Positions 57,901 to 60,900 of a DNA stretch of 64,000 bases are shown one piece after another. The stretch lies in NCBI RefSeq assembly GCF_003018115.1, contig NZ_CP027457.1, one strand, 5' to 3'. The position numbers were made by a program. The first letter of the stretch is position 1. Each line of letters opens with the position of its first letter. The DNA comes from Escherichia coli. GTDB lineage: Bacteria; Pseudomonadota; Gammaproteobacteria; Enterobacterales; Enterobacteriaceae.

Positions 57901-60900
57901 GACTGAACAAGGGCGCTCTTGTAAAAACAAGAGTTTTCTCGTGGTTTCGCCGAACTGTCACACTTACGTTCGGTTATGTGCTTAATAATGTTATGAAAAA
58001 GAAACCGGTTGCGCAGTTGGAGCGTCAGCATTCACTGCTGGAAAATCCATGTGCTTATGGGTTGTTATCGCAGTTCCAGGCTGCGATAGTCGTTAACTGT
58101 TTTACACTTAATAAAATAATTTGAGGTTCGCTATGTCTGACGACATGTCTATGGGTTTGCCTTCGTCAGCGGGCGAACACGGTGTACTACGCTCCATGCA
58201 GGAGGTTGCAATGAGCTCCCAGGAAGCCAGCAAGATGCTGCGTACTTACAATATTGCCTGGTGGGGCAATAACTACTATGACGTTAACGAGCTGGGCCAC
58301 ATCAGCGTGTGCCCGGACCCGGACGTCCCGGAAGCTCGCGTCGATCTCGCGCAGTTAGTGAAAACTCGTGAAGCACAGGGTCAGCGTCTGCCTGCACTGT
58401 TCTGTTTCCCACAGATCCTGCAGCACCGTTTGCGTTCCATTAACGCCGCGTTTAAACGTGCGCGGGAATCCTACGGCTATAACGGCGATTACTTCCTTGT
58501 TTATCCGATCAAAGTTAACCAGCACCGTCGCGTGATTGAGTCCCTGATTCATTCGGGCGAACCGCTGGGTCTGGAAGCCGGTTCCAAAGCCGAGTTGATG
58601 GCAGTGCTGGCACATGCTGGCATGACCCGTAGCGTCATCGTTTGCAACGGTTATAAAGACCGCGAATATATCCGCCTGGCATTAATTGGCGAGAAGATGG
58701 GGCACAAGGTCTATCTGGTCATTGAGAAGATGTCAGAAATCGCCATTGTGCTGGATGAAGCAGAACGTCTGAATGTCGTTCCTCGTCTGGGCGTGCGTGC
58801 ACGTCTGGCTTCGCAGGGCTCGGGTAAATGGCAGTCCTCCGGCGGGGAAAAATCGAAGTTCGGCCTGGCTGCGACTCAGGTACTGCAACTGGTTGAAACC
58901 CTGCGTGAAGCCGGGCGTCTCGACAGCCTGCAACTACTGCACTTCCACCTCGGTTCGCAGATGGCGAATATTCGCGATATCGCCACAGGCGTTCGTGAAT
59001 CGGCGCGTTTCTATGTGGAACTGCACAAGCTGGGCGTCAATATTCAGTGCTTCGACGTCGGCGGCGGTCTGGGCGTGGATTATGAAGGTACTCGTTCGCA
59101 GTCCGACTGTTCGGTAAACTACGGCCTCAATGAATATGCCAACAACATCATCTGGGCGATTGGTGATGCGTGTGAAGAAAACGGTCTGCCGCATCCGACG
59201 GTAATCACCGAATCGGGTCGTGCAGTGACTGCGCATCACACCGTGCTGGTGTCTAATATCATCGGCGTGGAACGTAACGAATACACGGTGCCGACCGCGC
59301 CTTCAGAAGATGCGCCGCGCGCGCTGCAAAGCATGTGGGAAACCTGGCAGGAGATGCACGAACCGGGAACTCGCCGTTCTCTGCGTGAATGGTTACACGA
59401 CAGTCAGATGGATCTGCACGACATTCATATCGGCTACTCTTCCGGCACCTTTAGCCTGCAAGAACGTGCATGGGCTGAGCAGCTTTATTTGAGCATGTGC
59501 CATGAAGTGCAAAAGCAGCTGGATCCGCAAAACCGTGCTCATCGTCCGATTATCGACGAGCTGCAGGAACGTATGGCGGACAAAATGTACGTCAACTTCT
59601 CGCTGTTCCAGTCGATGCCGGATGCGTGGGGGATCGACCAGTTGTTCCCGGTTCTGCCGCTGGAAGGGCTGGATCAAGTGCCGGAACGCCGCGCTGTGCT
59701 GCTGGATATTACCTGTGACTCTGACGGTGCTATCGACCACTATATCGATGGTGATGGTATTGCCACGACAATGCCTATGCCGGAGTACGATCCAGAGAAT
59801 CCGCCGATGCTCGGTTTCTTTATGGTCGGCGCATATCAGGAGATCCTCGGCAACATGCACAACCTGTTCGGTGATACCGAAGCGGTTGACGTGTTCGTCT
59901 TCCCTGACGGTAGTGTAGAAGTGGAACTGTCTGACGAAGGCGATACCGTGGCGGACATGCTGCAATATGTACAGCTCGATCCGAAAACGCTGTTAACTCA
60001 GTTCCGTGATCAAGTGAAGAAAACCGATCTTGATGCTGAACTGCAACAACAGTTCCTTGAAGAGTTCGAGGCAGGTTTGTACGGTTATACCTATCTTGAA
60101 GATGAATAATTAAGATTATTCTGCTGGCGGGTCGATTTATTTACGTAAATCGGTCCGCTTTCTTTTTATATATTCTTAAAAATAATTTAGCTGCTTTTCT
60201 TATTAAATAATCTCCCTACAATCGCTGCATTAATTAAATGCAGAGGGAACGGTTATGAAAAAATGGAAAGTACGTAGCGCGTTGGTGGCATTAATCGTGC
60301 TGCTGGCCGGTTGTTCCAGTAATGCGCAGTATAATAGCAGTGCATCGGGCAATGTCGGCACCGCCTGGGGTGGGGATGTGCACTCAACGGTTCAGGGCGT
60401 ATCTGCTGAGCGAGCCTGGCGCGATCCGGCAGAGATGATCGTTATTAGTTATTCGACTAATGTTCCTTCCGGCTACGACCGCGTTTATAGCATTCGTATT
60501 AACGAACTGGAATATGCTATTCGCGATGGTAATTTTAATTCTCTACCTATTACGCGGGTTTATGATTCATCCAATAATGAACCACGCTATATTATCCATG
60601 CCAGAGTAGGAATGAATTATCAATTATATGTCCGCAATTACAGTCGTAACACCAACTACGAGATCGTTGCTACGGTTGATGGCCTGGATGTGCTGAACGG
60701 CAAGCAAGGTTCGCTGAATAACAACGGCTATATTGTGAATGCCGGAGATTCGTTAGCGATTAAAGGATTCCGCAAAGATAAACATACCGAAGCGGCTTTT
60801 CAGTTCGCCAACGTTGTTGATTCCTACGCAGCCAATTCGGCGCAAGGCGATATGCGTAATACCGGGGTAATCGGCTTTGCCGCCTTTGAATTACAAGGCC

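Follow-up and report, generated by a model that had tools for sequence, protein, structure and literature searches.

In a 64,000-nucleotide stretch of Escherichia coli DNA (NCBI RefSeq assembly GCF_003018115.1, contig NZ_CP027457.1; hereafter the window, whose coordinates are used throughout), the 43-codon open reading frame (ORF) yqgB ends immediately upstream of speA, in a region that reads metK (- strand), yqgD, yqgG, yqgB and speA (+ strand). The explanation that we favour, and consider probable, is that yqgB is a translated upstream open reading frame (uORF) that acts as a relay, feeding the first start codon of speA (Met1) and also limiting Rho polarity, while the peptide itself is dispensable. 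Enteric bacteria have two putrescine pathways, one of which begins with speA, and to our knowledge the mechanism by which speA expression responds to polyamines has never been explained.

The original prediction was that a 43-codon ORF stops 8 nucleotides (nt) before the speA start codon with the speA Shine-Dalgarno (SD) sequence inside its end, and that this geometry reflects translational coupling or a leader-peptide-like influence rather than two independent genes. The small ORF and its position stand: its stop is followed by GGTTCGCT (58125-58132) and then by the speA ATG (58133-58135), and the RefSeq annotation carries both coding sequences (CDSs) with the identical 8-nt spacing. The placement of the SD needs a correction, as GAGG(T) does overlap the yqgB stop codon but shares only its last two bases and lies outside the sense codons, with a 6-nt spacer to the ATG. 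The region is present in 5421 of 5426 complete E. coli genomes (at least 80% query coverage), and TGAGGTTCGC at the yqgB stop and speA SD is near-invariant within the Enterobacteriaceae. Short intergenic gaps inside operons are commonplace; judged from the alignments, it is the evolutionary persistence of the junction geometry, and not the 8-nt gap as such, that appears to go beyond chance.

Within the Enterobacteriaceae, two TGAs serve as the stop of the ORF, one in the SD (nine genera, including E. coli) and a second in speA codons 2-3 (ATGTCTGA; 11 genera). The ORF end always lies at -11 to -9 or at +5 to +7 relative to the speA ATG, fusion to the speA frame was never seen, and this stop/start geometry (+8 or -8) is found in 20 of 20 genera and, in the -8 form, in four more families. 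Four Enterobacter-like genomes carry GC-rich insertions in the yqgB tail, of 51 nt (L006, L016) or 125-129 nt (L009, L011), between a conserved AIVVNCF block and the speA SD, approximately 20-150 nt 5' of the speA ATG; across these insertions the yqgB frame stays open, giving products of 60-91 amino acids (aa), and it still terminates at the junction. Outside the Enterobacteriaceae, the stop stands at +5 to +7 in 12 of 13 genera, and in 11 of these it closes an open uORF frame of 60-87 codons (43 in Tatumella and 45 in Yersinia, with lows of 30-40 inside genera), while the other non-speA frame is mostly open for fewer than 25 codons. The combined Fisher p-value for this overlapping uORF is 1.3e-5, compared to 0.99 for the control frame. 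Hafnia shows the same geometry, but with a TAA within a different sequence. Rosenbergiella has neither the +5 to +7 stop nor the uORF, and the two genomes of this genus that lack the overlapping TGA (ATGACCGAC) are exactly those that lack the uORF. If the TGA of codons 2-3 is removed, the frame runs for 43 more codons, across both speA starts. Furthermore, speA codon 2 is TCT in 43 of the 43 cases in which it encodes Ser, whereas the commonest codon accounts for merely 37-76% at 14 further invariant TCN-Ser sites of the gene.

The frame is conserved and the peptide is not. Codons 1-37 of yqgB align gap-free across 20 Enterobacteriaceae genera with no in-frame stop, compared to 70 and 24 stops in the other frames; restricting the count to variable codons leaves 0 against 8 and 11. 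The ratio of nonsynonymous to synonymous substitution rates (dN/dS, Nei-Gojobori) is 0.97, compared to 0.89 and 0.61 for the out-of-frame controls, 0.50 for an N-terminal extension of speA, 0.02 for the speA body and 0.23 for the C-terminus of yqgG, and the codon-position entropy is flat (0.62/0.70/0.59). In two blocks, YGLLS and AIVVNCF, no codon position varies, third positions included, and the two pair as the arms of one hairpin. Past codon 37 the tail is AT-rich and tolerates frameshifting indels, and its frame differs between genera. Natural variants (P0002, P0005, P0007, P0008) include compensated double frameshifts that scramble 7-11 residues in E. coli and Shigella flexneri, and one variant has an in-frame deletion of six codons. 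A protein homology search with YqgB gave matches in Escherichia and Shigella only. The E. coli product matches its curated families well above their cut-offs, with 113.3 bits against 24 for Pfam PF11036 (named 'Virulence promoting factor') and 90.1 against 35 for NCBIfam NF033844 ('acid stress response protein YqgB'). However, the purifying selection on a protein that such a functional name implies was not found, given the near-neutral dN/dS and blocks that are conserved at the nucleotide level. Selection therefore appears, from these comparisons, to maintain the yqgB frame and not its amino acids. yqgB has no recognisable SD, yet its initiation region is the most accessible of the leader (opening energy 5.5 kcal/mol).

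As profiles of the SpeA family align only from residue 23-31 and an internal Met27 has a perfect SD, the start at 58133 needed checking, and 58 of the 80 Enterobacterales speA loci returned by the scan were examined for this. An ATG at -78 followed by an open extension of exactly 26 codons is kept in Enterobacteriaceae, Erwiniaceae, Pectobacteriaceae and Yersiniaceae, and the extension is kept in Hafniaceae too, with the start at -75. In Morganellaceae and Budviciaceae there is no speA extension, and no junction uORF either. Within the extension, the LRSMQEVA block is invariant with third positions that vary synonymously, and several genera have Val or Ile in place of Met27. Ribo-RET and N-terminomics reveal in vivo initiation at Met1 as well as at Met27, producing SpeA-74 and SpeA-70, respectively. 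The alternative that Met27 is the sole true start, which would leave yqgB 86 nt upstream, is ruled out by these two data sets and by the conservation of Met1. The Met27 SD is encoded by Gln-Glu-Val, and this start is independent of yqgB, which abuts the start of the long isoform only. In some Erwiniaceae and in Rahnella, position 27 is GTT, GTC, ATA or ATC and the SD is weakened, and the short isoform is probably absent from these bacteria.

Published transcript data place Rho at the same junction. The 498-nt 5' untranslated region (UTR) of speA has been cloned and Rho-dependent termination occurs within it (Adams et al., 2021; PMC7815308). The corresponding Term-seq 3' end lies 57 nt inside speA (K-12 coordinate 3085854, approximately 58190 in the window) and is classed as Rho-dependent, with scores of 3.09 for Rho and 1.15 for an intrinsic terminator, and DirectRNA-seq coverage across it falls from 282 to 87 without bicyclomycin but only from 283 to 270 with it (Adams et al., 2021). 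The leader hence combines a short uORF with premature termination downstream. Indeed, the same authors tagged this 3' end 'uORF', listed yqgB-speA as a candidate uORF pair, proposed a yqgG-yqgB-speAB transcript as likely, and connected intra-ORF Rho termination with poor initiation of translation (Adams et al., 2021). The idea of such a pair is thus not new; what is new here is the contrast between an open frame and a neutral peptide, the persistence of the stop across families, the TCT at codon 2 and the start hairpin described below. The translation of yqgB has been demonstrated through a tagged protein, by which it is counted among the experimentally validated small ORFs, and its start codon was detected in vitro by INRI-seq. 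In addition, a 2026 paper reported that deletion of yqgB in Salmonella lowers speA and speB mRNA, arginine decarboxylase (ADC) and spermidine, and that added polyamines rescue the mutant; these phenotypes fit a cis effect on speAB. Coupling, as opposed to two independent genes, is therefore well supported, though indirectly: the geometry is conserved despite frame changes and insertions, the peptide is neutral, the two genes probably share a transcript, Rho terminates at the junction, and speA and speB expression falls in the Salmonella deletion mutant.

In the mechanism that we infer, yqgB would be carried on the yqgG-yqgB-speAB transcript and its function would be to be translated up to the speA start. 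A ribosome finishing yqgB would halt at the TGA over the speA SD, or in many relatives at the TGA of codons 2-3, and would unwind a hairpin of approximately -19 kcal/mol in which the AUG and first codons of speA are sequestered; reinitiation would then take place at the AUG 8 nt away, or the AUG would be left open to a new 30S subunit. Going by the known footprint size, a ribosome terminating at either TGA should sit over the 5' arm of this hairpin, wholly or for the most part. The relay would specifically feed the long-isoform start (Met1, SpeA-74), as Met27 has its own strong SD, and ribosomes kept on the junction would limit Rho, which otherwise ends about two-thirds of transcripts just inside speA.

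In the predicted start hairpin (free energy -19 to -21 kcal/mol), pairing reaches 98% in the Enterobacteriaceae, where all changes are one-sided, and 83-93%, with four two-sided pairs, in a model alignment of 32 sequences. The covariance model, which covers these 32 sequences from beyond one family, gave 90.5% pairing where slid registers gave 20-52%. It has 11 two-sided pairs compared to 4.2 ± 1.6 in shuffles, four of the 11 being within the start hairpin. A predicted outer helix encloses the whole junction, and its 3' end lies approximately 4 nt before the Rho-dependent 3' end near 58190. Inside yqgB, the hairpin built from the two invariant blocks (-14.4 kcal/mol) has seven pairs with two-sided changes (alignment A5). 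An Rfam 15 covariance-model scan of positions 57000-58700 on both strands gave no match at E<=1. On these models, RNA structure is plausible support for the relay, not proof.

Several observations weigh against the relay. The 32-sequence alignment was fitted to the covariance model and is hence biased toward structure, whereas RNAalifold over 43 sequences from all families found no consensus hairpin, with trivial helices only at the junction; in that alignment the start hairpin is 85% paired, mostly via conservation, and shuffles average 83.5%. Two-sided changes in the start hairpin are few. Strong occlusion of Met1 of speA was expected, but the computed cost of opening this site is only moderate, at 8.4 kcal/mol compared to a background median of 11.0, and so the case is not rested on structure. 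Both junction TGAs occur in sequence that is conserved for other reasons, namely the SD and Met-Ser-Asp, and since the frame is open and out of the speA frame, a stop at the junction follows in part. The yqgB start escaped detection by Ribo-RET in vivo, an outcome put down to low abundance, and if translation of yqgB is low it cannot supply much speA translation. A filter rule hints that there may be a secondary transcription start site (TSS) within 200 nt of the 3' end, and if present, this would produce transcripts without part of the relay. Moreover, the expression data for the yqgB deletion come from Salmonella, whose junction lies outside the sequences compared.

Three other explanations were weighed, none of them fully exclusive of the relay. 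That YqgB is an independent functional small protein (an acid-stress or virulence factor and drug target) next to speA by plain operon compaction is, in our judgement, very unlikely, even though the curated families PF11036 and NF033844, the validated tagged product and the deletion phenotypes all speak for it. The 2026 Salmonella paper treats YqgB as a drug target and reports binding of ranitidine by surface plasmon resonance (SPR), and in a proteome screen YqgB overexpression induced heat-shock proteins, which suggests that the peptide accumulates. However, its dN/dS cannot be told apart from that of the out-of-frame controls, the codons of its conserved 'residues' do not vary even at third positions and fold into RNA helices, and its C-terminal frame shifts between genera and through compensated frameshift variants. 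The phenotypes, for their part, are accounted for by lower speA and speB expression and by polyamine rescue, in a paper where complementation and polarity are nowhere mentioned.

The invariance of the two blocks down to their third positions, and hairpins with compensatory changes inside and upstream of yqgB, could also mean that the region acts first of all as a folded RNA that regulates speA (like a riboswitch, or as a target of Rho, a protein or a small RNA), with an ORF that is secondary or barely translated. The action of Rho in the leader and the failure of Ribo-RET to detect the yqgB start in vivo would agree with this, which we regard as unlikely: the Rfam scan was empty even at its permissive threshold, and structure alone leaves unexplained the absence of in-frame stops through variable codons, tails and 51-129-nt insertions, the conserved and highly accessible ATG and the cross-family stop at the speA start. 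RNA elements may nevertheless gate the translation of yqgB, and would then be compatible with the relay. It is quite unlikely that yqgB ribosomes merely keep Rho off the leader with neither hand-over nor hairpin opening. The removal of approximately two-thirds of transcripts at the junction, at a 3' end that is Rho-dependent and not intrinsic, and the link between intra-ORF termination and poor initiation (Adams et al., 2021) are what this proposal explains, but the sole rut-like stretch is in yqgG rather than yqgB, a shield does not require five families to keep the stop within 8 nt of the AUG, nor an invariant TCT at codon 2, and the start hairpin gives a direct reason for coupling.

The relay that we favour has precedents among known systems. 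uof-fur and rseD-rpoE of E. coli are uORFs translationally coupled to a downstream regulator gene, with coupling shown by mutation, and both uof and rseD are in the EcoCyc 'leader peptide' list. As with yqgB, a short uORF ends at or over the main start, and the act of translation, not the peptide, is thought to drive initiation. Unlike these cases, coupling at yqgB is inferred, speA has an independent internal start so that only one isoform is affected, and the speA leader is under Rho control and holds another uORF. Classical coupling at trpE-trpD and trpB-trpA (UGAUG/AUGA), as well as the hairpin-opening model for MS2 coat and replicase, shares a stop a few nt from the next start, an SD at the end of the upstream ORF and openable structure over the start, but the upstream partner there is a real selected protein, whereas yqgB appears to encode a neutral peptide kept as an open frame. 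tnaC-tnaA and speFL-speF rely on arrest peptides that sense a ligand, prevent termination and mask Rho loading. They too have a leader ORF before an amino-acid or polyamine gene and Rho-dependent attenuation in the leader, but the TnaC and SpeFL peptides are strongly conserved and far upstream of the structural gene, unlike yqgB, which abuts speA; this resemblance belongs to yqgG. In mdtU-mdtJI, found in the same study as the yqgB-speA pair, a polyamine-responsive uORF controls Rho termination (Adams et al., 2021; PMC7815308). This operon, too, is polyamine-related and has a long 5' UTR with a uORF, and its Rho-dependent 3' end falls a short way into the ORF. However, MdtU reportedly needs its conserved C-terminus and spermidine, whereas YqgB is unconstrained and the conserved peptide of the speA leader is YqgG.

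A leader-peptide-like role for yqgB, in the sense of sequence-specific sensing, was not upheld. Its dN/dS is near one, the overexpression proteome was grouped with aggregation-type heat-shock responders and not with the arrest-like cold-shock cluster, and the C-terminal amino-acid selection that marks TnaC-, SpeFL- and MdtU-type peptides was found in yqgG and not in yqgB, so the role fits yqgG better. The C-terminal motif of YqgG, (S/T)QDSRAG, is invariant in 34 genomes of Enterobacteriaceae, Yersiniaceae, Pectobacteriaceae and Acerihabitans, with a codon-position entropy of 0.38/0.03/0.97 and the Arg codons AGA, AGG, CGG and CGA in use, and a TAA directly follows RAG in Yersiniaceae and Pectobacteriaceae. 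Codon usage thus gives clear signs of amino-acid selection on this C-terminus. The leader's sole C-rich, G-poor (rut-like) stretch is inside yqgG, a tagged YqgG protein has been detected, and a literature search found no study addressing yqgG function. YqgG is therefore a candidate arrest or sensor peptide of the speA leader, and is more likely than YqgB to act as a sequence-specific peptide.

It is possible, on a more tentative footing, that the leader works as a three-step translational relay. YqgG, as a metabolite-sensing arrest peptide, would gate the action of Rho or of a terminator via its invariant C-terminus, the peptide-neutral yqgB would hand over to Met1 and so set the ratio of SpeA-74 to SpeA-70, and acid resistance, colonisation, colistin sensitisation and the drug-target role ascribed to YqgB would be cis effects on speAB. 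If the relay is real, what thousands of genomes list as an 'acid stress response protein', and what was recently proposed as a drug target, would act mainly in cis as a translational device, the phenotypes of yqgB deletion would need re-reading as polar effects on speAB, and there would be a concrete mechanism for two SpeA isoforms in a regulated ratio. Together with yqgG, polyamine feedback on speA would become directly testable by a few point mutations. If the junction is ordinary operon compaction, nothing changes. The features discussed are collected in Table 1.

Table 1. Features of the speA leader and the yqgB-speA junction, in window coordinates.
Feature	Position	Strand	Details
speA 5' leader	57635-58132	+	498 nt; holds yqgG and yqgB; cloning primers of Adams et al. 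mapped on the window
yqgG	57756-57899	+	47 codons; same leader; near-perfect SD GGAGGTGAT; C-terminal motif SQDSRAG at 57867-57887
Terminator-like hairpin	57915-57939	+	GCUCUUGU/ACAAGAGU, then UUUUCU; 16 nt past the yqgG stop
yqgB ORF	57993-58124	+	ATG 57993; 43 sense codons, then TGA 58122-58124
Hairpin inside yqgB	58061-58097	+	Arms in the YGLLS and AIVVNCF blocks (UAUCGC/GCGAUA); alifold
Outer helix	58103-58186	+	UACACU 58103-58108 with GGUGUA 58181-58186; encloses the junction; predicted
yqgB stop and speA SD	58122-58127	+	TGA 58122-58124 overlapping GAGGT 58123-58127
Start hairpin	58126-58178	+	Last SD base, AUG and codons 2-4 with codons 11-16 (GUUCGC/GCGAAC, CUGACGA/UCGUCAG); predicted
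speA CDS, long isoform SpeA-74	58133-60109	+	658 aa; starts 8 nt past the yqgB stop
Second TGA, speA codons 2-3	58138-58140	+	TCTGAC; alternative uORF stop, 8-nt overlap
Internal speA start, short isoform SpeA-70	58200-58213	+	SD AGGAGG 58200-58205; Met27 ATG 58211-58213

Further observations concern the 5' side of yqgB. A block at 57978-57992 (+), just 5' of the yqgB ATG, is conserved at the nucleotide level with the consensus GTGTTTTACAATGAT and resembles a -10 element (TACAAT). It contains a GTG in frame with yqgB that was the old start of a 48-aa product in E. coli, and the same GTG is the sole plausible yqgB start in Pectobacteriaceae and Hafniaceae. In one metagenome contig, the first seven yqgG codons are joined in frame to the region upstream of yqgB. 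An internal promoter inside yqgB (58093-58120) was considered and found to be unsupported, as its spacing and its -10 element, in the indel-rich AT tail, are not conserved.

The region between yqgG and yqgB contains several possible RNA elements. The terminator-like hairpin (-12 kcal/mol) shows compensatory UA to CG changes, in both directions, among the Enterobacteriaceae; it was not found in other families, and no Term-seq 3' end is listed for it in the LB (lysogeny broth) data. A possible antiterminator, pairing yqgG CAAGAGC (57877-57883) with the 5' arm of this hairpin, was rejected; the two are complementary in E. coli, but the consensus of other genera, CCAGAGCC/CCAGGGCC, breaks the complementarity. 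CUGAAC and CCGAAC are both complementary to the same GUUCGG (57903-57908, 57950-57955 and 57968-57973, +), one pairing enclosing the terminator-like hairpin and the other forming a local hairpin, and these modelled pairings may constitute a mutually exclusive switch between yqgG and yqgB. RNAalifold also predicts a long-range helix between yqgG codons 43-44 (57882-57887, GCCGGU in most genera) and yqgB codons 4-6 (58004-58009, ACCGGU), which shows 96% pairing across 16 Enterobacteriaceae, lacks two-sided changes and is weakened in E. albertii. If this helix is real, ribosomes translating yqgG would free the initiation region of yqgB.

Around yqgG, a second Term-seq 3' end (K-12 coordinate 3086295, antisense to yqgC) maps to approximately 57750 (+), in the yqgG SD region just 5' of the start. 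yqgC itself (57642-57857, - strand) is antisense to yqgG and absent from the RefSeq annotation, and neither ribosome density nor tagged protein was seen for it (Weaver et al.). yqgD (57379-57645, + strand) lies between metK and the start of the speA leader and is annotated merely as 'protein YqgD'.

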